This document shows positions 2,681 through 63,149 of a stretch of 64,000 nucleotides of DNA, one piece after another. Every line of letters starts with the position of its first letter. Positions within the stretch are counted from its first letter, which is position 1. Source of the stretch: Raja brachyura. Taxonomy: Eukaryota. A program made the translations under genes and the position numbers. The stretch spans positions 112,344,001 through 112,408,000 of the forward strand of contig OY740783.1 of assembly GCA_963514005.1 (NCBI GenBank). Reading direction: 5' to 3'. The notes beneath the pieces were generated by a model. The model was not told the origin of the DNA. It did no database searches and was given only the letters and a program-made list of their open reading frames with translations.

Positions 2681-5239
2681 ACAAGAATGCAGAGACAGAA
2701 ACAGCTGGTATTGGTGCTCTGGGAGAGGTTCTGTGTGGAAGCTCATCTCAGTTTACAGACACCAACGATGCAATGTTGAATTCTGCTGCGTAGACATTAC
2801 AAGGGATTGAGTGGTCTGATTCACATTTGTGGCCCAGCAAGGGGGTTGGGCCTCTTCCGTTACCTGTGTAACAGTTCCACCGTTTTATCACAGACTGGGC
2901 TGTGAAATAAATAGCCTGCTGCAGGTAACCCTTTGGTTAATGTTGTATCAGGAAATGATCAATAAAATATATAATTATAATAAAGACTTTAGATGTAAAA
3001 TTTGTTTTCATTTTCTAATAGTACATGATCCCATTTTTGAATTTTTTGCAGCACACTTAAACAACTCTGAGAAACATTTGGAAGCCCATAGCCTTCAGAT
3101 GTCACCGGGAGCATGAGGGGGAATGAAAGGGAGCTTGAGCTTTCAGGATAGATTTCCTGTATATGGAAGGTAGCAGATGTTGATATTGGCAGTACTCTAG
3201 GGGGGGCAGGGGCTTTGGAGTTGTCTGGCTATGGGGACTGGGGTTCCTGGACTGCTGTGCTGACAGGTTTGTTTGTACAGCACGGAGCAATGTTGTTGGA
3301 GCAGTTTCATTTTTCACTCAATGCCTGGAAAAGCCTCAGCAGGGTTAGTTTATTGTCGGATCTGTACATGGTTGAACCCAGAAGCTATTCAGCTGCTCAG
3401 TGGGAATAAGGGGTTGTTTGAAGAGGGTGTTTATAATCTGGAAAAGCAGCAAAATGCCTTGACTTTGAAATGTCATCTCAGTGCGATAGAATGGTGCGGT
3501 CACACCGAATGTGTGCGCTGTGTGGGTGTGAGGGAAGGGAACTGTGTTGCAATAGACTCATTGCAATGTGATACGATGACCCAGAAAAGATACTGTACAG
3601 TCAGAGAATACAACTTGCACAAATGTCAGAGTACAATTTACAAAAGTATCAACACCAAATATTGACTGATTTATTAAACTTGGCAAGGGAGGCAAAGAAC
3701 AGAATGTGTGAGAGAGATGGAGTGGAAAGGAGGTAGAGTAAAAAATAAAAAGTAGAAGAAAACACAATTGAAGGCAAGAGGGAAGGAGGCAGTTTGAGAG
3801 GGTGAGAGAAACAGAGGAAGGAAGAGAATGGCAAAGGGGAGTCTTCATATTGTTGAATGAAAAGAAGAGGTGAGGGTGAGAGACTGGAACAGATAGGTAA
3901 AGAGAAAACAGTGGGAGACACGGGTAGCGAGTGCAAGTGAGAGACACTTTAGGAGTACCAAGCAAGGCCATGAAAGCAATGTGGACAGAGTGCTCATGAA
4001 TAAAACTAATCATTGGCAGGAATGTAGCTCATCATTATCCAGTGTATTATATCAATAATAGAAAGGGAGGTGACCTTGTGGAGACCTAGTTTATTAAGAG
4101 GGAGAAAGTAAAAACTAATGAATACCAAGTCCAGTAATAGAAGCCAACTTACCAGATATCTTGAAATAAATATTGTCCAGTGAGAATTTTAAAGGGAAGA
4201 TTTTGTCCAAATACTCATGTACCTGTCACTTGATGATTGAATCAGTTTTGATGGAAGTTTCCGGCCTGATTGTGAACACACGTGGTTGGTTATTAGGGCA
4301 GGGTTGTAAGATGCACCTGATTGGGGAATGTAAGCTCTCTGACCACAGTGCTGGCGTGGGCTGCTGATGAATTGGCAAGAGGGAGGATGCTCTGGTTGTG
4401 CAACTATGCAATGGGCTCTAATATGGAGAGCTGAACAGCTGATGATTCATAGCTTCTTTTGTGTGGAGTTAAATCAGAAGCAACCCAGGGCCGTGCCAGT
4501 TACCCAGTTGAGAATAAGTAAGCAGTGAGGGAAACCACTAACCAATTGTTAATTTAGGCTTGCCACTTAGAAAAACAAGGAGAGCTGGAGGAATCGTACT
4601 TTTAGATGTCCAGTAAAAAAATTTGGTTAGACCACACTTGGAGTGCTGTGAATGCATCTGGTTGCCAGATTAGAAAGAGATCTTTGAGTCACCAGACAGC
4701 ATATTGAACAGATACACTGGGACAGTACCATCAGTAGTAGAGCCATTAGTAGTAGAGCGTCACAGCTAGGGCAATTAAGAGTTCTGTGAACCTGGGTTCA
4801 GGGGAGACTGGAGGATGAGAGGTAATCATGGGGATAAATACGATCACAGATTATCACAGTGCACTGAAATCCTAGATGTTCTGGCAGTGGCCAACGATGT
4901 TTGTTTGGACTCATTGTCAAGGTAATGTTTTGGATTAATTTGCACAACTATTGTATGTCAACTTCAGTTATTGGATGAATGGTGAAATGACTCTGGTCTG
5001 CATTGCAATTTCACCAAGGTAAAGTATATTTTCAGGTATGTAATGCTGAAATAAACAGCGGAGCAGGAACAAACTTGTCGGCCTGGAGTCTGTGCGGGAG
5101 TTTGGAATGGGTCTTTCTGCCAGGAAGATGTTGGGCAATGTCAGTACAGACCTGTGAGTTGTAATCAGATCCAGCAGCTGATTGTGGAGCTCCTGGAGGG
5201 ATTGAGCAACCATTTGGGAACAAGGTGTTGTGGAGAGGT

Positions 5240-5330
5240 ACACAAAAGGCTGGAGAAACTCAGCGGGTGCTGCAGCATCTAAGCAGTGAAGGAGATAGGT
5301 GACATTTCGGGTCGAGACCCTTCTTCAGAC
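5240..5330 (-). mobile_element. 91-bp Penelope-derived element with hammerhead motif and 13-bp TSD
   Basis: Minus strand reads GTCTGAAGAAGGGTCTCGACCCGAAATGTCACC...CCAGCCTTTTGTG. Flanked by the perfect direct repeat GTTGTGGAGAGGT (5227-5239, 5331-5343). Confidence 0.8.
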
Positions 5331-6409
5331 GTTGTGGAGAGGTTGTTGGTCCTACCACAGCTGGTGAACCCTCTTGGCAGTCAACACTCCGGATCAGTAT
5401 TTTCATGAAATATGTGTTGGAAAACGATTCATGATTTGGTGAAGCGGCTGGAATCATGTTCCACGTTACAAAAATACAAATGTCCTTCGGCCACCCCCTT
5501 TCTGTAGTTGGGGGAAGGGGAGGGTGGCTGGATGTGGTGGGTGTGATTGTGGGAAGCCCCACCATCATTTTGAGAGTTTCATGGTGAGTGGGCAAGATGT
5601 TAACTTGCGCTAAACATTTGCCGGCAAAATTCCCTCAGTAACCAGAAGGCCAGAAAATATGATATATAAAAAGCTTTTGTCAAAATGAGGCAGACAGGCA
5701 GTTCAATCTGAATCCCTTCTATCTTTTAGATGAAAGTAAGGAACTATCAAACAAGAGCACAGTTATAGCCAGTGAAATCTGCTACTGGGGACAATATAAA
5801 CACTTTATGCAACCACACAGTCTGATCCATTTGACTGTCTGGACAGCAGGTCCCTCGACACCAGAGAGACAGTTATCAGACCAGAAGTGGTCAATGCAGC
5901 ATGTCTAATGGTGCAAAGATGTCCTAAGGACTTAGTAATGTCCCAATACATTCTGTAAATAGCCTTTTTGCTCCCTGGTTCTTAATACAAACAATTCTAT
6001 TAAAGAAGGATGTTCTGCCACAGCACATTTCAAGAACTCTAGTCGTCCTATTGCTATTTTGACATGCCGCCTGGGTTTAGTCATAGCAGAGTGGCTTTCT
6101 CCTATTATTTTTTTTTTTAACCAGACAACTGAAAATGAAAAGAGAGCTTCCTTGGCAGAAAATTGACTTGAATTTTTATTTGCAAATTGGAAGGGTTGTC
6201 TTGTTTCTTTCCTACTGCACATACACTGACACCAGACCATTACGCTGCACCCATCAGGCAACAACGGAGTCTGTTGGATTTATATTTAACTGTTTCCTCC
6301 TCATGTAATCATGGCATATCTTTTTAGCTTTGTTTGGAATTTGCTGCTTGCTTGCCATCAGAGTTATGTTTCACATTGTGAAAATGTGAAAACCCTTTCC
6401 TTATTTCCG

Positions 6410-6850: not shown

Positions 6851-6959
6851 ACAGCAGTGGTTCCACTGGCGTGGTGTGATGGAATAAGGGTGTATACGAT
6901 CATGAGGTGAATAGATAGGGGGAAAAAAAACTGTCTTTTGGACAGGAACATGGATAGGT

Positions 6960-7070
6960 GACCCAAATCGTCACCAAACCATGTTCTCCAGAGATGCTAC
7001 CTAACCCACTGTATTATTCCAGCACTGTGTCTTTCGTTGTAAACTAGTATTTGAAGTTCCTTGTGTCCAC
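6960..7070 (+). mobile_element. Degenerate Penelope pLTR/3' fragment
   Basis: CTCCAGAGATGCT...CCAGCACTGTGTC similarity to the other copies. Confidence 0.55.
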
Positions 7071-7224
7071 ATTTACTGAATTCTGTCATGCTATAAGATT
7101 TTCCTTGTCCTTTTACCTGTTCAGTAATCATGTATGTGACATTTTATTGACTTCCTTCTGGAGTATTGTGAACAGTTTTCATCACATGTTAAAGGAAAGA
7201 TGTTGTTAAGCAGGAAAGGGAAGA

Positions 7225-13290: not shown

Positions 13291-14324
13291 GGAGATGCAG
13301 CACTGGAAATTCTTTTGCATACTGCTCAGTTTTTGTGCATGACGCAAAATAATTTAAAGCCAGCTTTTTAATACAGTAAGGAACTCAGTGCATGCTCACA
13401 TGATATGCTCAGTTTTAAATTCTTGTTCATGAATTCCATTTTTAATATCTATAATAATGTAACACAAAGCGAACACATCACTTGCATGATGAATTCATGG
13501 TACTGAAGTAAAAATAATGGCAGCCTGAAAATATTATGAGCAAAATGAAGTCACTAACAAGACACAACATAAAAACATCTTGTATTCTATAGAATTCCAA
13601 GTAAAATTAGATCAATTTCACACATGAGAAAGTAAATGGAAACCATGCATTTTCATGTATGGAAGTGATTAGTGAGATTGAGGGTTTCACACCCACAACT
13701 GGGTCAGGAGTAAAAATCTTTTTTTTTTCTCTCTGTGAAAATTGCTTTCATATGAGCAAAAAAGGGGGTTGAAAGCTTATTTATAGGGAAAAAATATTAA
13801 CCACAATTTGATATGGCACAGATAATATTCACAGGCCTACAGTCCAGAATATAAGAGACTCCATATTTGCCAACTTAATTAGTCTGGAATTGTTTGGATT
13901 CGACAAAGCTCAGTGAGTGCATTAGTCAGGATGCTGGAAAGGCAGTGGAACCCCAGCAGCTGCTCCCATTAGTGTTACCCAGCTAAATTTAAATGTTGCT
14001 GTTTAATGACTCAATTCGCTTTGTACTTTTCACACATAATTTTCACGATGGGTTCAATTATGGCCAGCAGTTTATCGAGGGCAAATGTTTTGTTCCTGTA
14101 CACTTGAAACGGAACTTTGTAAAATTGTTAAGAAAATCAAACATTGGAAATGAGGCAGATAATGGTCCCTCAAGCTTGTTCCCCACTGAACAAGATCACC
14201 TTTGATCATACCCTTTTTCCAGATCCTATTATTCTCTTTGAATCCAAAGGAACTTATAGCTTGACAAGCAATCCTCAAAGAGATCAATGCTTGATTTAGG
14301 CCTGATCCAATTCAACTCGTGTTT

Positions 14325-14525
14325 AAGAAGGAACTGCAGATGTTGGCTTACACCGAAGATAGGCACAAAATGCTGGAGTAACTCAGCGGACCAGGGAGTA
14401 TCTCTGTAAAAAAGGAATACATGACGCTTCAGTCTGATGAAGGGTCTCGACCCGAAACGTCATCTATTCTTTTTCTTAAGAGATGCTGCCTGGCCCGCTG
14501 AGTTACTCCGCACTTTGCGCCTATC
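14325..14525. mobile_element. Head-to-head inverted pair of Penelope pLTR fragments with intact hammerhead core
   Basis: Left arm antisense, right arm sense. CTGATGAAGGGTCTCGACCCGAAACGTC at 14434-14461. Flanking repeats TTCAACTCGTGTTT / TTCAACTTGCGTTT (12/14). Confidence 0.8.
14434..14461 (+). ncRNA. Minimal type-I hammerhead ribozyme motif (PLE-type)
   Basis: CUGAUGA core, one extra A, helix II GGGU-CUCG-ACCC, GAAA, palindromic ACGU helix III and GUC cleavage triplet. Helix I is weak (about 2 bp). Confidence 0.6.
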
Positions 14526-14814
14526 TTCAACTTGCGTTTTTGTCCTGCTAACTGCTCAGTCTCAGTGGATCGGATGAGGCAGCTACCAAACGGGTTATTG
14601 GAAGAAAGTTTGATGCTCGGGTTGAATCAGAGGATTCTTGAATGGTGCTTTATTAAGTGGGCAGACCCTGCTGAGTATGAAACCGTTCATCAACACGTGG
14701 GTGGATGGTGTATGGAATTTGCAATGCATGCCGACATTGGCAATGGCAGGAGAATGGCTAGAAGGAGTCTGATCAGTGATCAGCAATAAAAATAGAAAGA
14801 AAGATGTATTTCTG

Positions 14815-14905
14815 AAGGTAGCACAAAATGCTGGAGTAACTCAGCGGGGCAGGCAGCATCTCTGGAGAGAAGGAATGGGTGATGTTGCGGGTCGAGACCC
14901 TTCTT
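14815..14905 (-). mobile_element. Penelope pLTR fragment truncated inside the hammerhead motif
   Basis: CACAAAATGCTGGAGTAACTCAGCGGGGCAGGCAGCATCTCTGGAGAG...GGGTCGAGACCCTTCTT. Confidence 0.75.
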
Positions 14906-15133: not shown

Positions 15134-16715
15134 CAGTGCATTGAAAAAGTATTCAGACCCCTTCACTTTTTCCATATTTTGTGACGTTACAGCCTTATGT
15201 AAAATGGAATCAAATTTTTTTTTAATCATCAATCTACCCACAATACCCCAGAATGACGAAGCGAAAACAGGTGTTTAGAAATTTTTGCAAAGTAATTAAA
15301 AATAACTGAAATATCACATTTACATAAGTATTCTGACCCTTTGCTATGACACTCGAAATTGAGCTTAGGTTCATCCTGTTTCCATTGATTATCCTTGAGA
15401 TGTTTCTACAACTTGATAGGAGTGGTAAATTAAATTGATTGGACATGATTTGGAAAGGCACACACCGGTCAGTATAAGGTCCCACAGTTGACAGTGCATG
15501 TCCGAGCAAAAGCCAAGCTATGAAGATGAAGGAAATTGTCCATAGACGTCCGAGACAGGATTGTGTCGAGACACAGATCTGGGGAAGGGTATAAAACAAT
15601 TTCTGCAGCATTGCAGGTCCCGAAGAGCACAGTGGCCTCCGTCATTCTTAAATGGAAGAACTTTTGAATCACCAGGACTCTCCATAGAGCTGGTCGCCCG
15701 GCCAAACTGAGCAATTGGGGGAGAAGGGCCTTGGTCAGGGAGGTGACCAAGAACCCGATGGTCACTCTAACAGAGCTCCAGAGTTCCTCTGTGGAGATGG
15801 GAGAACCATCCGAAAGGACAACTATATCTGCGGCACTCCACCAATCAGGCCTTTATGGTGGAGTGGCCGGACGGAAACCATCCTCAGTAAAAGGCACGTG
15901 ACAGCCCGCTTGGAGTTTGCCAAAAGGGTTGTTTTCTCTGGTGCTCTGGTCTGATAAAACCAAGATTGAACTATTTGGCCTGAATGCCAAGCGTCACTTC
16001 TGGAGGAAACCAGGCACCGCTCATCATCTGGCCAATACCATACCTACGGTGAAGCAAATGTGGTGGCAGCATGATGTTGTGGGGATGTTTTTCAGCGGCA
16101 GGAACTGGGAGACTAGTCCGGATCGAGGGAAAGATGAACAGAAAGATCCTTGATGAAAACCTGCTCCAGAGTCTTCTGGACCTCAGACTGGGGCAGAGGT
16201 TCACCTTCCAACAGGACAACGACCCTAAGCACACAGCCAAGACGACACAGGAGTGGCTTCGTGACAAGTCTGTGAATGTCCTTGAGTGGCCCAGCCAGAG
16301 CCCGAACTTGAACCCAATCGAACATCTCTGGAGGGACCTGAAAATAGCTGTGCATCGACGTTGGCCATCCAACCTGACAGAGCTTGAGAGGATCTGCAGA
16401 GAAGAATGGGAGAAATTACCCAAATGCAGGTGTGCCAAGCTTGTAGCGTCTTACCCAAGAAGACTTGAGGCTGTAATCGCTGCCAAAGGTGCCTCAACAA
16501 AGTACTGAGTAAAGGATCTGAATACTTATGTAAACGTGATATTTCAGTTATTTCTTTTTAATTATTTTGCAAACATTTCTAAACTATTTTTTTAATTATG
16601 GGGTATTATGTGTAGATTGATGACAAAAAATGAATTTAATCCATTTTAGAATAAGGCTGTAACGTAACAAAATGTGGAAGAAGTGAAGGGGTCTGAATAC
16701 TTTCTGAATGCACGG
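15134..16715 (+). mobile_element. Complete but inactive Tc1-family (DD34E, IR/DR type) DNA transposon
   Basis: TA flanks (15132-33, 16716-17). ~210-bp ITRs CAGTGCATT..AAAGTATTCAGACCCC / GGGGTCTGAATACTTT..AATGCACGG with inner direct repeats. Confidence 0.95.
15520..16508 (+). pseudogene. Tc1 transposase pseudogene
   Basis: [35 protein letters not shown]...[11 protein letters not shown] (34 residues between D and E), ending AAKGASTKY*. Frameshifts, a stop and small deletions. Confidence 0.93.
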
Positions 16716-17089: not shown

Positions 17090-18078
17090 ACAGTACTATC
17101 CGCTTTCCAAAGAGAACACTCTCTCCACAACTCCTTAGTTTACTCGTCCTTTCCCTCCAAACCCGCCCCCTCTCTCCGAACCTACCCCCTCCCCAGGTAC
17201 TTTCCCCTGCAGCAGGAGATGTTAGACCTATACCTCGACCTGCTTTCCTCACTTCCATCCAGGGACCCCAGTAATCCTTCCAGTTGAGACAACATTTTAC
17301 ATGCATTTCTTCTACTGCATTGCTGTTTCAAATGTGACCGTCTTTACATCAGCAAGACCAAGCATAGACTAGGCAACTGCTTTGCCGAACACTTTTGGTC
17401 TGTCTGTCAAGGCCCGGTTGCGAACTAGTGTAATTGCCATTCCCATACCGACCTTTCTGTCCTGGGCCTCCCCCATTGTCAGAGTGAGGCCATTCAAAAA
17501 TTGGAAGAATAGCTCTTTATATTCTGCTCTGGTGTGATCATTGAATCCCCCAACTTAATATCCATTCAAGTAATATTGCCGTCAACCCTCTTTTTCTTTC
17601 CAGCCTCCCCCATCCCCTCCCTGGTGCACTCCCAAAGTCTCATACCTCCCAGTCACCCTTCTCCTTTCCCCTCCTTCATACACTCATCTCCCATCCTCCT
17701 TTTTCCATTCCCCTTTTTCCCTACCCCCTTCTTCTCCCCATCCTCCGTGTCCCTTCCACCCACATCCCTCTCTCTGGCTATACATTTCACTCTTCTTTGT
17801 CTCCCTATCTGACACCTTTTTTTCAGGTCTTTTCTGGTTATTTATTCCACCTATCTACCAATCAAACTGTCACCTGTATCCTCCAATCAATTGCCAGGCT
17901 TTGTCCCACCTCTCTTGTCCAGTTGTCATCCCCCTGCTTCCATCAGACTGAAGAAGGGACCCATTCTGAAACATCAATGTATTTTCCACCCCATATGCTG
18001 CCTGACCTGCTGAGTTCTTCCAGCACTTTGTGTTTTGCTCAAAATTCCAGCAACTGCATTACAGTCTCTTACGTCTCC
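17090..18078 (+). mobile_element. Penelope-like element 3' part: decayed GIY-YIG endonuclease, pyrimidine-rich region and pLTR
   Basis: Remnant of QGP..SFQLRQHFTC..YC..C.KC..LYISKTKHRLGNCFAEH. Degenerate hammerhead CTGAAGAAGGGAC...TGAAACATC at ~17948-17975, then the same tail as the short repeats. Confidence 0.8.
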
Positions 18079-23857: not shown

Positions 23858-23952
23858 GTGTAGGAAAGAACTGCAGATGCTGGTTTGAATCTAAGGGAGA
23901 CACAATGCTGGAGTAACTCAGCAGGACAAGCAGAATGCCTGGAAAGAAGGAA
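23858..23952 (-). mobile_element. Penelope pLTR fragment
   Basis: TGTAGGAAAGAACTGCAGATGCTGG...GCTGGAGTAACTCAGCAGG. Confidence 0.65.
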
Positions 23953-26050: not shown

Positions 26051-27146
26051 GTAGATTAATGTAATGCAATCTTAAATGTATTGGCAAAATAGATAAACTT
26101 GTTGTCACCATTCAGTCTAGCCTGGTAACCTCCTACATCATTTTCACTTTATAATGTCAGCATGTTGCCGGACATAGAAAGGGTGCTGTAGCTGAAAAGA
26201 CCCTGTTGTGAAAGGCCCATGCCAGTACCAAGGAAAGAAGGAATGCTGTTTTTGTCATATTCTCTGTGATGATTCACTGTACACTTTAAATCACTGCAGT
26301 CTAACCATGAACAGGCTGACCCCTTGTTTAATAAGTGAGGAAAAACGAATTGTGAAATAGTGTGATTTGAAGCAATTATGAAATAATAAACCATTGTTAA
26401 ACTATAAATGTGACGAGATAAACAAAATAGCATAGCAGTCCATTTCTCAGCATTCCTGATCCTAATAAGTTGATCTGATGCACTTCATCCCAGACATATC
26501 AGTAAGTAGTTGTGTTGGCTTAGGGGTTTGAGTAGCAGTCACTCTGCATAGGGAGCTGGTTCTGAACTTATCACTTTGGTACCAGCTGCGTTTGACTATA
26601 AAGTATGATGTCAGCACTCTGTCCAAAATTTAACAAAGAAACAGACCAAAAGTTTTAAATCTAAAGTATTGATGACCAATTCATTGATGTCCGCTTGATT
26701 CCTGATTACCAAATGGCACACGGAGGCTTTGTTAACTTATAATATGTAACTTATAGCCATTATTGCTTAAAAGTAACCCAACAAATCTGTTGAAAGGATC
26801 AATAATTAATACTGGCCCCTCGAGCTAAATGTAGATAACAGACATAAACAGATGAAAAAAAACATTTTTGAGAGTGCTTTTGTAGCTGTTGGGTGCTGTG
26901 AGCATGATTTCTATACAGTGTATCTGAGTAGTCGATCACCAGAGGCAATATATTTTTATCCAATCTTTCTACTCTTTGAAAGTAGCCGAGCAATGAGTGT
27001 GTAAAAAAAAAAGTGATAAATAAATTATTATTATTATTTCAGCTTGTAAACTTAGATCCATCTCTTTTAGTATCTGATGAAAACTGCGGTATTTTTCAAT
27101 TTTCCTTGCCTTATTCTTACACAGACTGACAATGTAGGAACAGGAA

Positions 27147-27241
27147 GGTAGACAAAAAATGCTGGAGAAACTCAGCGGATGAGGCAGCATCTATGGAGAG
27201 AAGAAATTGGCGACGTTTCGGGTCGAGACCCTTCTTCAGAC
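27147..27241 (-). mobile_element. Penelope-derived short element with intact hammerhead core (27212-27239)
   Basis: Minus strand GTCTGAAGAAGGGTCTCGACCCGAAACGTCGCC...CCAGCATTTTTTGTCTACC. Confidence 0.8.
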
Positions 27242-28138: not shown

Positions 28139-28824
28139 TATCCCCGCACATGCTTCATCTTGCCCACCATCATTTCTTTCCATTCACGTGTTTCTGCCTG
28201 GTATCTTGAATGTATCCCCAGCAACCATTTCATGCTCACTGCACACTCTCATCACAGTCTGGCTGAAGAGGTTTCTTCAGAATCCTTTCTGGATTTATCT
28301 GTCATTAATGTAAACTCTCTCAAAAATGCACGGTGAGTGGAGGACAGTTACTCACTAGTGGGGGAGAGCTGCAATGTCAGAGAGTCTGTCCTATCAGTTG
28401 ATCCCATGATGCAATTTTCCAGTAAAGGGACATTTTTCCTGGTGTTCCGATTGATGATTATCTCTTGTTCTGTATTATGAAATGCATCATCTGGCCAGTT
28501 TCACGTTGCTGTTTGCGGGGGCAGACTCGGTATAGTTTGGCTTCACTTTAAGAAATACTTGCTTGACTGCAGGCATTGTGGAGCCATGAACAGTGGGCTG
28601 GACAGGTGCGCGCTACTTCTTTACACTTCCACAGAGCCTTTGGTGAATTACTGCTTCCAGCTGAGCTCTGCACTGGCCTCTGACTGTGGTTCAGCTGCAG
28701 GCTGCATTTGGAACATCATTATTCACCTACTGATGCCGATCCCTCTCCTCCAACCCACTTCACCCCTGATAAAATAAGGAGAATGGTAACTTCAGCAGGT
28801 CATCCACATCTACCTTCCTATTAT

Positions 28825-29007
28825 GTAGGAAGTAACTGCTGGTTTACACCGAAGATAGACACAAAATGCTGGAGTAACTCAGCGAGACAGGCAGCATCTC
28901 TGCGGAGAAGGAAAGGGTGAGGCTTCAGGTTGTCACCCATGTCACCCATTCCTTCTCTGCGGAGATGCTGCCTGCCCTGCCGAGTTACTCCAGCATTTTG
29001 TGTCTAC
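28825..29007. mobile_element. Head-to-head inverted pair of Penelope pLTR fragments
   Basis: Arms GACACAAAATGCTGGAGTAACTC... / ...GAGTTACTCCAGCATTTTGTGTC. Flanking repeats CTACCTTCCTATTAT / CTACTTTCCTGTTAT (13/15). Confidence 0.8.
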
Positions 29008-29439
29008 TTTCCTGTTATTTTTGCTTCTGAACTGTACTCTGCTAATGTGGCGCAGTAGATTGGAAAAGGTAACAAAGGTCTTTAATCTCGTTCAGTTTTT
29101 GACTCTTTCTAAGTTCCTATATTAGTCTGAGCCACTTACAGAGCTGATTGAATTCACAATATTTCAAGAATTTGACTCTCCCTATACAAATTATAGGTTA
29201 ACTGTCCAACTCTGCTTCCACTCCTGTATGGAATTCTGGACTTCAGAGATGATGTCATGATGTGGCTCATGCATTGAGTTTCATGTGCTTCAGTAACAGT
29301 CCTTGCACGCCAAACAGGTCAGTCCTGATTTTCTGACGTGGACTTTGGCCGGACAGAAGGGATCGTTGGTGCAGCAAAGATGGTTTCTCACCTGATGAGC
29401 TGATAGTGGTGATTTGTGAGTTTTGGGCTTGAGACTGAG

Positions 29440-33314: not shown

Positions 33315-33504
33315 AAACACAAGAAACCGCAGATGCTGGAATCTTGAAGGAAACACAAACTGCTGGAGTAACTCAGCAGGTCAGGTAGCATCTGGGGAGG
33401 AAAAAAACAGGGTGATGTTTCAGGTCGGGATCCTTTGTCGCCTATCCATTCCCTAAACTGATGCTACATGACCCATTGAGTTACTCCAATACTTTGTGGG
33501 TTGC
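33315..33504. mobile_element. Head-to-head inverted pair of older Penelope pLTR fragments
   Basis: GCTGGAGTAACTCAGCAGGTCA... / ...TGACCCATTGAGTTACTCCA. Flanking repeats TCTTAATTCTGG / TCTTAATTTTGG (11/12). Confidence 0.7.
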
Positions 33505-53159: not shown

Positions 53160-54345
53160 AAAATCATACAGCACGTAAACAGGCCCTTCGGCTCAACGTG
53201 CCGATGTTGACCATGATTCAATGATACTTTATTGTCACATGTACCTAGGTACAGTGAAATGCTTTGTGTTGCATACAACCCAATAAAGTTGTATAGCAGA
53301 CCTCACCTAGGCAGTACACAAGTGTTCCCACGATTTGATGCTGACAAAGTTCACAAAACAGTCCTATGTGCAGCATGCAGCTGCACCTGGCAGCAGCCTT
53401 CCTCCCCCCTCCTTGCTAGGTCCATTCTTGGTGATGGGGGATCCATCTACACTTGTCTTACCTACCTGCATTTGGCCCATATCTCTCCAAGCCTTTCCTA
53501 TCTATGCACCTGTCCAAATGTCTTTTAAATGTAGTTATAGTAACTGCCTCCTCTGGCAGCTCATTCCATTTACCCACCACCCTCTGTGTGAAAGAGTTGC
53601 CCGTCAGATCCTAATAAATCTTTCCCCACTCACCTTAAACCTATCTTTTCTGGTACTTTATTCCCCTACACTGCCTAAAAGACTGTTCATGCACCCAATC
53701 AATTTCCCCCTTGACCTTGTACACCTCTATAAGATTACCTCTCTTCCATCCTTTCTCTGGGAATACAGTCCTAGTTTCCCTGTAGCGCAGCCTATCAAGT
53801 CCTGGCAATATCCTTGTAAATATTCTCTGCACTCTTTCCAACTTAACAATCCTTTCTATAGTACGGGCACCAAATCTTAACACAATACTCCAAATTCGGT
53901 CTCGTCAACATCTTGGCCAACAGTAACATAACATTCCAACTTCTGAAGAAGGGTCCTCAACCCAAAAGATTATCCATCCTCTTTCTCCAGAGATGCTGCC
54001 AAACCCGCTGAGTTACTCTATACACGGTACCCTGACTGATGAAGACCAATGTACTGAAAGCCTTCTTGACCATCGTGTATATACCTGTGACACCACTTTC
54101 GAGGAACCACGTATATGCACTCCAAGATCCCCCTGCTCTACAACATTCCCCAGGAACCCGCAATTCTCTGTGAAGGTCCTACCATGGTTTGACTTCTCAA
54201 AATGCAACACCTTGCACTTATCTGCATTAAACTCCATTAACCATTCTGCAGTCCACTTACCCAACTGATAAAGATACGGCTGTAATTTTTGATAAGCATC
54301 TTCACTATCTACGATACCACCCACTTTAGATTATTCTGCAAAGTT
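53160..54345 (-). mobile_element. CR1 3' fragment with nested Rex-like (53215-53430) and Penelope (53943-54018) pieces
   Basis: GGIVDSED..WLMEFNADKCKVLHF and LERVQRIFTRILPGL. CR1 tail at 53160-53210. CTGAAGAAGGGTC..GAGTTACTC insert. Confidence 0.85.
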
Positions 54346-58989: not shown

Positions 58990-60317
58990 TTGAAGGACCC
59001 AGGGTATTATGTGTCATTGACAAGTCACAACTGTACCTCACAGCTTTAACCCTTTAGGTGGCACGGGAGAGGATTAACTTTACAGGCACCGCGATTGACA
59101 AGAATAGCGAATTCCCATTTGGGAAAACCTTCAGTCGGGACAGCCAGGAATAGTGCGACGTGGGCGGGACTTGAATCAATGCTGGACGTGGTTGTTTTCT
59201 GTGTAACATGAAAAACCTTTCTGCTTATTATTGCTAGAGAGGATTAGTCGGACCTGAGATTGTCGTCGGGATTGACGTGACATTCCTCGCATCACTGGGT
59301 GGTGGGACGGGGGTTACTTTTAATCCCACATTTGTAGTTTAATTCTCAATGGTTAAATGTCTATTATGACTTTACACTTGTAACGATTTTTACATTTTTA
59401 AATGTCCATATAATTTCTCTATTTCCACCTCGTCCACATACCTTGACAAAGAAAATATAGTTACATTGATACGGAAATTTAATTCCGCCTCCACCAATGA
59501 ATGAGGTGTACAGAAAAAGAGCATAAACCTTTCAATAATGGGATTAAAGTAAAACTGATTTTATAATGTCTCAATGATAAAACTTACAAAGCCTTGATCA
59601 ATCAATCGCCCTCGTCAGTTGCAAGGTATTTGTTTATATATCAATAATGATATAATGATATTTACTCGGATAGGATCCACACTATAAAAACAATTGAATT
59701 CATCGCGGAACACTGTGCGGGAGAACGGTGCAGCAATGCACTAACATGTGGAATATTGTGGTCAATTGGCACCACAAGTGCCTCTTGTAATTTTCTCGGT
59801 GCGCGGTGCCGTATATTGGTCCACCCTTTGGCTAAAGGGTTGGGTTGAAGTGTAGAGCCGTGGGAGAGTTTTATGCAAGGCCGCTGATACGGACGTTTTG
59901 CACGCACTGACAATTCACGTGAACATTGTGTGTTGACGCGCTCGCAGCTCAGAAATCAAGGCCAAACACTCCCCGCTGATCCCAGAGCAAGAAAGTTGGC
60001 ACTTCACCGGCAATATAAACGGGTGGTTGATAATTGCGAGTAGTGAATGTGTATTTACGGTGAACAGCACTTTGAGGTGAGCGCACAAAAGCTGAAACCA
60101 CGCGAGAAATCTATTGCCATCTTCAAGTCAACGAGATGGAGTTTGGAGCCGGGTGGGTGTCATTTGTTTGAGCCCAGGCCGCAGCACGGGGCTAGGCTCA
60201 ATTCTACAGGGGGTAGTGGCGGCAGGAGGCTGGACTTCCAGAAGTCAAACCAGGTATCTCCGTTTCATTCGAAGTATCAAGGTAGGCAGATGTCCACCAC
60301 CGACCAGTCAGACTCTC

Positions 60318-60416
60318 AGTCAGAAGAAAGGTCTCGACCCGAAACGTCACCTATTCCTTTTCTCCAGAGATTCTATCTGTCCCGCTGAGTTACTCCAGCA
60401 TTTTGTGTCTACCTTC
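60318..60416 (+). mobile_element. Penelope-derived short element with mutated hammerhead core (CAGAAGA)
   Basis: CAGTCAGAAGAAAGGTCTCGACCCGAAACGTCACC...CCAGCATTTTGTGTCTACCTTC. Confidence 0.8.
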
Positions 60417-61732
60417 TGTGCCAGTGAAAGCGCCGCTCAGTGGAACCTGACCAGGGAGCCGCCACCGGCGGTTTGCTCCTCTTGACTAACCAACTGCGCA
60501 CAACCCATCCTTGAAAGAATCCAAACCTGCAGATGGAGCTGGAATTCTGCAATAAAAAAACACAAAGATAATGGATCTGAAAAAGCGAGCTCCAGCTCTG
60601 CGGGCGCTGCCTGGCCCGCTGGGAATTGCCAGCATTTTCTTTATTGCCATTCTCAGGATTATTCTCTGGGCGAGGTTGGCTTTGAGAAAGTACGGCCGCG
60701 GATGGAACTCTTTAGTTGTACCCTTTCCGTCTGCTCAGTTTGAAGGTGGAGGGATGGGATACCATGGTTGGTGGGAGGCGATGGCAGTGTGAAACCCAGC
60801 GGGAATGTGGCAGAATGCCCCACACGCAACCTGCCGCTGCTCCGCTCCAGCCACACGTGCAACAGCAGGAGGCTTCGACGCAACCGTGTATTCAGCTTGG
60901 CCTCTTCGCGAGAAACTGCAGTGTTGGTTTTGAAGATGGTAATAGATAAGGACATATGTATGATAAAAAAACGAGGTTAATTGATTGATGAAAGGCAGGA
61001 ACAACTCGGAGAAAATATGTCCAACACTGGCAAAGAGCGATACAGAACAGCAATAGGAAATATTTAAAACGGTGATTAGAATGCAAGAAATATATTCCTC
61101 TGAAAGTATGAGATTCCATGAATAAATAAAGACAAGGGACCAATTGAGGGTGTTGAAAGAGACAAACATTAACCAGCGGTGAAGAATAGGATTTGAGGGG
61201 ATTAGATGCAAAACGCATTAAGAAGGGAAAGGGGAACTGGGATTAAATGAACAGGGGACATAAAAGAAAATGGTAAAATACAACAGGGAATATATTCAAT
61301 CAACGAATCAAACTCCGAGCTAAGACCCATACTCCAGACAAATTGTACCCACGCACTTTTGCAGATAGTTAATAATCGGCGAGAAAAAAAGTGCAGAGGA
61401 TAAGTAAATGTAAAACGTTTCAGGTAAAACGTAAAAAGTTCTAGTAAAACGTATAGGGGGGAGGGGGGTAGAACGTGGTCTTTACACCTTGGAAGGAAAA
61501 AAGTAACGGAACACTATTAAAGGGTAAACAAGACAACATATCGAAATTAAAAGTCCAATAACGATTCGGCAGTGTGGATTTCAGCATGAAATATCTTGCT
61601 GGAGAAGCCTTTCTTGGCTTTTCGACGTGGAACAGAAAGACTAGACAATGCCGAAGTAAAATTTAAAAATATGACTAGTTAGTCCTCCCAAAAGACAAAC
61701 AAAGAAGGAAGCAGAGGGTTTGAATAAAAGGT

Positions 61733-61839
61733 AGGCACAAAAATGCTTCATCTCCTCTCATGCGGGACAGGCAGCATCTCTGGAGAGAAGGAATGGGCGA
61801 CATTTCGCGTCGAGACCCTTCTTCAGACCTTCAGAATTG
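61733..61839 (-). mobile_element. Penelope-derived short element with 11-bp TSD
   Basis: ...GGGCGACATTTCGCGTCGAGACCCTTCTTCAGAC, flanked by GAATAAAAGGT (61722-61732, 61840-61850). Confidence 0.75.
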
Positions 61840-62074
61840 GAATAAAAGGTGGCTACTCCCAATGATAGCAGGTGGATAGTGCAGATCCAGAATGTCGTTG
61901 TTGAGACCATTGCCCTTCTCACTTACATGAACAAATCAGACTCTTAATCCAGAGCACAATTTATACATTTATGAATATTGTTAAATTGGCAATAGGGGGG
62001 GAGGGTCCCAAGTTACACGAATGCATGAATCACCTTCGACAATATGAAAATCAGTAACAACTGAAGTACAAACC

Positions 62075-62768: not shown

Positions 62769-62860
62769 CTGAAGAAAGGTCTCGACCCGAAGCGTCACCC
62801 ATTCCTTCTATCCACATATGATGTCTGTCCCGCTGAGGTACTCCAGCATTTTGTGTCTAT
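62769..62860 (+). mobile_element. Penelope-derived short element with degenerate hammerhead motif
   Basis: CTGAAGAAAGGTCTCGACCCGAAGCGTCACCC...CCAGCATTTTGTGTCTA. Confidence 0.75.
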
Positions 62861-63149
62861 CTGCTTCACTAACGTCCTTTAGAGGATGAAATACGCTGTT
62901 TTTGAATAGTCGGTCCAACATATGACTGCAGTCCCATTTCCGTTCAGGGACGATTAGACATACACAATAGGTGCTGAAAAATAAAGATTGCAAGCCATGG
63001 CCATATCCATAGAATGAATAAAACAACGGGAAGGCTGAATAGGTTAGACAATGATAGTTAAAACTGATGGATTTGTGGATTGGGCATAAATGGTGACAAT
63101 ATATTTCTAACTGGTATTCAGTTTGAGGAGAACTTGGTGTTGCCAGGTT

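Follow-up and report, generated by a model that had tools for sequence, protein, structure and literature searches.

Short hammerhead-bearing repeats are insertions of the ribozyme-bearing end of a Penelope element, with a sharp left edge that may mark its RNA start

The window analysed here, a stretch of DNA of 64 kb, holds many short repeats with a hammerhead ribozyme motif at one end. Are they a mini-element family of their own or fragments of a longer element, and what fixes the left edge that so many of them share? Positions within the repeat are numbered from the C of CUGA (+1), with predicted cleavage after +28. An nhmmer profile built from six window copies was searched against the window with a cut-off of E<0.001 and gave 16 matches at 13 sites, three of which are head-to-head pairs (6/16 matches are arms of such inverted pairs). 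The first-pass annotation, made by eye, had put the number at about 15, and all seven coordinates that it named are among these matches. Two further matches are weak (18425, E 0.18; 60606, E 0.016), and the reversed window, used as control, gave a best E of 8.8. Nine of the 16 matches start at -7..+4, in agreement with the earlier remark that several copies begin near the CTGA motif. As for the size of about 90-110 bp, the repeats are indeed short, but their length distribution has two peaks, at about 95 and 130 bp. The features of the window are as follows.

5227..5239, no strand: first copy of the TSD, 13 bp.
5240..5330, minus strand: untailed mini insertion of the young subfamily type, spanning -2 to about +89.
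5301..5328, minus strand: minimal hammerhead core (CUGAAGA, helix II, GAAA, GUC), with C15.2 of helix III changed to T here.
5331..5343, no strand: second copy of the TSD, 13 bp.
6960..7070, plus strand: old tailed copy starting at about +16; right end approximate.
14319..14527, both strands: head-to-head pair, tailed arm on the minus strand, untailed arm on the plus strand from -5.
14812..14905, minus strand: untailed mini from +4.
17184..17539, plus strand: remains of the Penelope ORF, namely its linker and GIY-YIG end, both decayed (tblastn E 1.7e-15; blastn match to L213).
17905..18075, plus strand: 3' pLTR of a long copy, with a tail and a hammerhead that starts at 17948; right end approximate.
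23865..23952, minus strand: tailed copy truncated at about +34.
27145..27241, minus strand: untailed mini from -2.
28820..29009, both strands: head-to-head pair with arm starts at +9 and +26; by eye the minus arm has a decayed tail, missed by the motif test.
33321..33500, both strands: old head-to-head pair, tailed arm on the minus strand from +3.
53942..54019, plus strand: decayed mini from -1.
60316..60415, plus strand: untailed mini from -5.
61722..61850, minus strand: mini (61733-61839) between 11-bp TSDs.
62769..62863, plus strand: untailed mini from +1.

The minus-strand copy at 5240-5330 lies between exact 13-bp TSDs (5227-5239/5331-5343) and the mini at 61733-61839 between exact 11-bp TSDs (61722-61732/61840-61850), both as annotated before; the 11 extra 5' bases of the latter partly repeat the first bases of the element itself. 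A TSD of at least 10 bp was absent at the other 10 of the 12 window sites tested, and in a control with simple repeats left in, 9 of 295 random window positions had one of at least 11 bp. The proposed tie to Penelope was upheld: the stretch at 17248-17539 is a remnant that aligns with the EN end in a family ORF (tblastn E 1.7e-15, 49-61% identity), and downstream of it the motif recurs at 17948, where the copy is tailed and its homology extends far upstream. Just upstream of this remnant, 16053-16508 on the plus strand holds a decayed DDE_3 transposase end (Pfam E 1.5e-14), which we take to be Tc1-like. The minimal type-I hammerhead with a palindromic helix III was borne out for the family, although the 5240 copy itself has lost the palindrome (GAAATGTC). 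A scan against Rfam gave no match at the gathering score. A search of the window for tRNA found none. The window also has a C/T-rich stretch with strong skew at 44001-46000 (GC skew -0.50, AT skew -0.53).

We then sampled the 2.7-Gb genome in 160 evenly spaced 10-kb stretches (1.6 Mb) and found 648 matches, which extrapolate to about 1.1 million, or about 3% of genome bases. Copies extending upstream lead, in translation, into GIY-YIG and RT frames, and 20 long young copies were retrieved to define the parent element. L213 is near full length: its ORF starts at about +160, and two direct repeats of 132 bp, which are 95% identical and each hold a hammerhead, lie 3,946 bp apart as the partial tandem that forms a hammerhead-holding pLTR. 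L216 has RVT_1 and GIY-YIG Pfam matches (E 2.6e-6 and 0.0026, neither of which reaches the curated cut-off) and an atlas match to RT/GIY-YIG clusters (score 0.98); Pfam found nothing in three pieces of the L213 ORF. Ahead of the RT lies a long N-terminal stretch rich in Pro and Ala (L213 3120-4941, about 450 aa), which has no Pfam match. The optional 30-40 bp tail and the inverted 5' copy with TSD, both EN+ Penelope traits, are also present. The parent is an EN+ Penelope-like element, with an ORF for RT and C-terminal GIY-YIG upstream of the motif, and the short repeats are real insertions of its ribozyme-bearing end, not a separate mini-element family. A C-x4-C-x2-C motif in the translated linker before the EN points to a Neptune-type family, as described in the accessible text of PMC8557442.

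Left edges were placed by alignment plus EM for 591 of the 648 matches, namely those that reach the 3' part and have room for flanks. The edge fell at -7..+4 in 186/379 solo copies, in support of the non-random 5' boundary seen in the first-pass annotation. The left-edge hazard in this band was 0.106 per nt, compared with 0.004-0.012 in four other bands (n=379 solo), and the per-base drop at the hammerhead 5' edge was about ten times that elsewhere. Selection against long copies was rejected as the cause, as it cannot give an absolute pile-up of about 16 copies per nt against 2.6 in +5..+24. The method does lean toward the edge: with uniformly simulated truncation, 69 of 407 copies were inferred in the band for 43 true ones, and the EM put 13/68 true long copies at -4..-7, where about 54/379 solo copies were placed. 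This bias is insufficient, because 69/407 is far below 186/379 and because the flanks of minis have background composition (pyrimidine-rich in 9/170 minis versus 61/68 long copies). Exact genome counts for the young subfamily were 29,497 with +1..+38, 18,598 to -3, 14,857 to -4 and 8,618 to -11, a fall partly due to point mutation and sister subfamilies. The modal edge was -2, the base (outer pair) of the 2-bp helix I, in 11/42 young solo copies versus two at -3. TSDs of at least 11 bp flanked 20/202 minis and none of the shuffled pairings, so the minis were inserted at mini size.

At the other end, TSD-defined right edges cluster at +89-96 and +120-130, and a tail of about 35 nt was found on 206/587 copies. 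According to the accessible text of PMC11167929, the RT of the lizard Penelope PAc starts at two internal sites and extends both strands; in vitro, both strands are cut, and uncut RNA is inserted and is the main template. By analogy, we infer that the right edges (about +95 and +130) are probably RT start sites. One-sided tails and inverted pLTRs are already known in Penelope-like elements (accessible parts of PMC3846280 and PMC8557442). We defined an inverted pair by ribozyme ends within 120 nt, so that a long arm places a pair among the solo copies, and obtained 95 head-to-head pairs; 21/95, with flanks in range, share a TSD of at least 9 bp (0.3 expected). Exactly one arm is tailed in 65/95 pairs versus 45 expected (p=2.6e-5) and in 24/34 young pairs (p=0.012). 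In 66/95 pairs the end of the longer arm lies at -7..+4, and in four it lies beyond -12. Tailed arms of pairs are more truncated (median start +12 vs +3), and long young copies are mostly untailed (4/25 tailed); the two RT start sites may differ in processivity. L238, L244 and L250 share one head-to-head pair together with its right flank, which indicates that this pair was multiplied inside another repeat.

The explanation that we favour, with somewhat better than even confidence, is that the cDNA runs off a capped RNA start at CAGT (-3) and that no template jump precedes its joining to the target. Reverse transcription, whose predicted start lies some 95 or 130 nt downstream from the ribozyme, would run off the likely capped start; joining without a jump to the 3' part of the RNA would leave a stub. 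The left edge would then be the transcription start, and long copies would need a template jump or a read-through transcript. For a head-to-head pair, both nicked strands would be primed, one at each RT start site, and the two cDNAs would be joined near the TCAG-T-CTGA palindrome. The ribozyme would be copied uncut and would matter only in master elements. All subfamilies have (T/C)CAGT at -5..-1, which resembles the initiator consensus; a TATA-like word about 30 nt upstream occurs in some subfamilies only, with no peak over 68 long copies.

A stronger version, which we put forward tentatively and at less than even confidence, makes this an obligatory strong-stop step: a protein dimer would use two sites close to the capped start to prime the two strands of the target, each cDNA would have to jump to the 3' part of the RNA to yield a long copy, and most would fail. 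In LTR elements, minus-strand strong-stop DNA likewise results from priming near the RNA 5' end, and this short cDNA must transfer. The primer proposed here is nicked target DNA and not a tRNA, so that a failed transfer would be fixed in the genome; unlike LTR elements, the family has no LTR, PBS or integrase. Linkage across the ribozyme, which could reveal template jumps, had 0 informative downstream sites in 25 long copies, and the ends of direct tandems were scattered, with no jump acceptor at +28.

A capped start at A(-3) leads one to expect an untemplated G before this base, the cap signature published for L1 and SVA (accessible text of PMC3287187 and PMC11702581). Genome-wide, the base before A(-3) was G in 2,039 cases, A in 1,075 and T in 627, whereas the control at +2 gave G 223 and A 378 (odds ratio 3.2 for G before A(-3)). 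The loose-end consensus before -3 ended in G in all three contig sets of other runs that list it, and G or AG directly precedes -3 at five of the tandem joints listed for such contigs. Of the inspected loci, 11/20 with G versus 4/16 with A are inverted or tandem junctions, at which a G can be templated. In 8/16 inspected A loci a G stood one base further out, which points to short re-copying of the first bases. Solo copies unselected for this base gave 14 G, 8 A and 7 T, and a lone G was rare at TSD-defined junctions. Taken as sequence evidence, the G excess moderately favours a capped start. Repeats of the element's own first bases are frequent at 5' junctions (L251-L266, L226 and window 61828-61839) and look as if the RT had re-copied the template end.

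An alternative that we consider unlikely, yet the most serious one, accepts the same by-products and takes the left edge for an uncapped RNA end or a roadblock. Either trimming of the upstream RNA would stop at a ribozyme covered by protein, or the pyrimidine tract would carry a protein that halts the RT at the helix I base (-2). The modal edge at the outer pair of helix I and the long pyrimidine tract upstream fit this account, as does the protein-assisted folding of the PAc ribozyme (PMC11167929, accessible text). It is at odds with the G excess at -4 and its negative +2 control, with an upstream RNA nearly without structure (60 nt fold at only -1.5 kcal/mol) and with a hammerhead fold that lies above the energy minimum (-3.9 vs -7.3 kcal/mol). 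Since the ribozyme is already unwound by then and the upstream RNA folds so weakly, structure should not stop the RT at -2. The truncation defined by ribozyme structure that the first-pass annotation had offered is unlikely on similar grounds: the RT reaches the edge after copying the whole ribozyme, and left edges show no peak at the cleavage site (10/379 at +25..+33).

The family hammerhead has a helix I of 2 bp and a helix II of 4 bp, and a dimer through the palindromic helix III (ACGU) is possible, though not favoured in silico. Helix changes are from U-A to U-G in helix II and at helix I, with almost no double changes. RNAalifold on 58 decayed tailed copies gave no consensus structure; an 8-bp stem of +47..+54 with the tail is near-invariant and lacks covariation.

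It is in our judgement improbable that the minis form a non-autonomous family of SINE or retrozyme type that propagates itself, with the Penelope protein mobilising it in trans. About a million matches by extrapolation, with discrete ends and TSDs of their own, are what such a family would look like, and pLTRs can act in trans (PMC3846280, accessible text). Yet an 8-component mixture resolved 336 copies into five subfamilies, 4-20% from consensus, each of which holds long, mini and inverted copies in differing proportions (p about 0.01); no mini-only cluster appeared among these 336, where small lineages could be missed. Since all five are mixed, the minis are best read as by-products of the 3.9-kb RT/GIY-YIG element, and we regard their origin from this long element as very probable. 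Partial direct tandems number only about 10/543 copies, none in ribozyme-to-ribozyme phase, and minis have no sequence beyond the RT start, which PAc needs according to the accessible text of PMC11167929. Across consensuses, 2/28 ribozyme columns vary versus 23/67 downstream (p=0.005), and the core is invariant in the five except for loop II and one CpG; in single copies, it decays neutrally (0.073 vs 0.063-0.083 downstream). The core is thus better conserved than the downstream part between subfamilies and not within copies; the ribozyme is kept in masters and decays in stubs. No Pol III A/B-box pair was found on the sense strand of the five consensuses. On the antisense strand, two of the five have A-/B-box-like words (+70..+60 and +19..+11, 53 nt apart, chance about 1% each), which lends this alternative some support. 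The same words may matter for the antisense-template idea in the accessible text of PMC3846280. From the first-pass interpretation, the Penelope origin, the hammerhead and the shared 5' boundary stand; the separate unit and the structure-set truncation do not.

We give still less credit to the edge as a splice acceptor (pyrimidine tract, CAG), with minis made from spliced RNA. Acceptor-like sequence is found in all subfamilies, and the D. virilis Penelope intron ends at helix I (accessible text of PMC4209133), but there is no common upstream exon: mini flanks are background and TSDs abut the edge, and no GT..AG joint was seen among the joints listed. That ribozyme cleavage sets the template end is hardly credible, despite the core conserved across subfamilies and a palindromic helix III that allows a dimer, since it would leave edges at +29, in the band of lowest hazard (10/325 at risk), and minis keep an intact core.

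With the run-off reading preferred, the family can be set beside known systems. Truncated and inverted insertions of EN+ PLEs are known already. The Adineta Pen2a EN+ insertions (PMC3846280; Fig. 2 of PMC8557442) share the hammerhead pLTR, a 30-40 bp tail at one end, a head-to-head copy, TSDs of 9-17 bp and an RT with C-terminal GIY-YIG; the accessible text of these two papers describes frequent truncation and no fixed edge, and explains inversions by self-priming on an antisense template, whereas in the present family no product is as common as the stub, whose left edge sits sharply at the ribozyme. PAc, a Poseidon element of Anolis carolinensis, likewise shows a pair of right edges, separated by about 35 nt and lying shortly after the ribozyme, which its inserts retain uncut; its ORF starts inside the ribozyme (accessible text of PMC11167929), unlike the ORF here, which begins past both edges, and the linker motif points to Neptune and not Poseidon. 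As in the metazoan PLE minimal hammerheads of PMC4209133 (accessible text), we see CUGANGA, an extra A before helix II, G10.1-C11.1, a loopless palindromic helix III and mostly solo copies. A difference is that the helices are 4 bp (II) and only 2 bp (I), as in D. virilis, and the short helix I and unfavoured monomer fold are in line with the weak, factor-dependent activity described there. In D. virilis, an intron separates the ribozyme from a transcription start some 120 nt upstream (accessible text of PMC2377424 and PMC4209133), so a start at the ribozyme edge would differ. The non-LTR retrozymes in the accessible text of PMC7229834 and bioRxiv 10.64898/2026.07.22.740005 have a type-I hammerhead, no ORF and a PLE-pLTR origin in common with our minis, which differ in being neither tandem nor ribozyme-to-ribozyme units, in having a minimal and not a canonical ribozyme and in forming no lineage of their own. 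A search of the main text of open-licence PMC and bioRxiv papers returned neither a fixed left edge nor the strong-stop reading.

If the strong-stop reading is true, about one million stubs are a fossil record, at base resolution, of a transcription start, of both RT start sites and of two-strand priming, and a single scheme would explain pLTRs, one-sided tails and head-to-head inversions together. If the left edge is the RNA start, about 3% of the genome consists of failed first steps of one retroelement, and the in vitro system that already exists can be used to test the replication cycle directly. Penelope elements are the closest mobile relatives of telomerase. Our results also carry a warning that the solo minimal hammerheads counted in large numbers in fish genomes are mostly dead stubs and not ribozyme genes or retrozymes.

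In the oriented sequence of the long copy L217, a 66-bp tandem of +21..+87 without the CUGA core occurs twice (1116-1303 and 6952-7110, 95-98% identity). The body of this copy is of the young subfamily and its end of an old one, with the switch within the ribozyme region.
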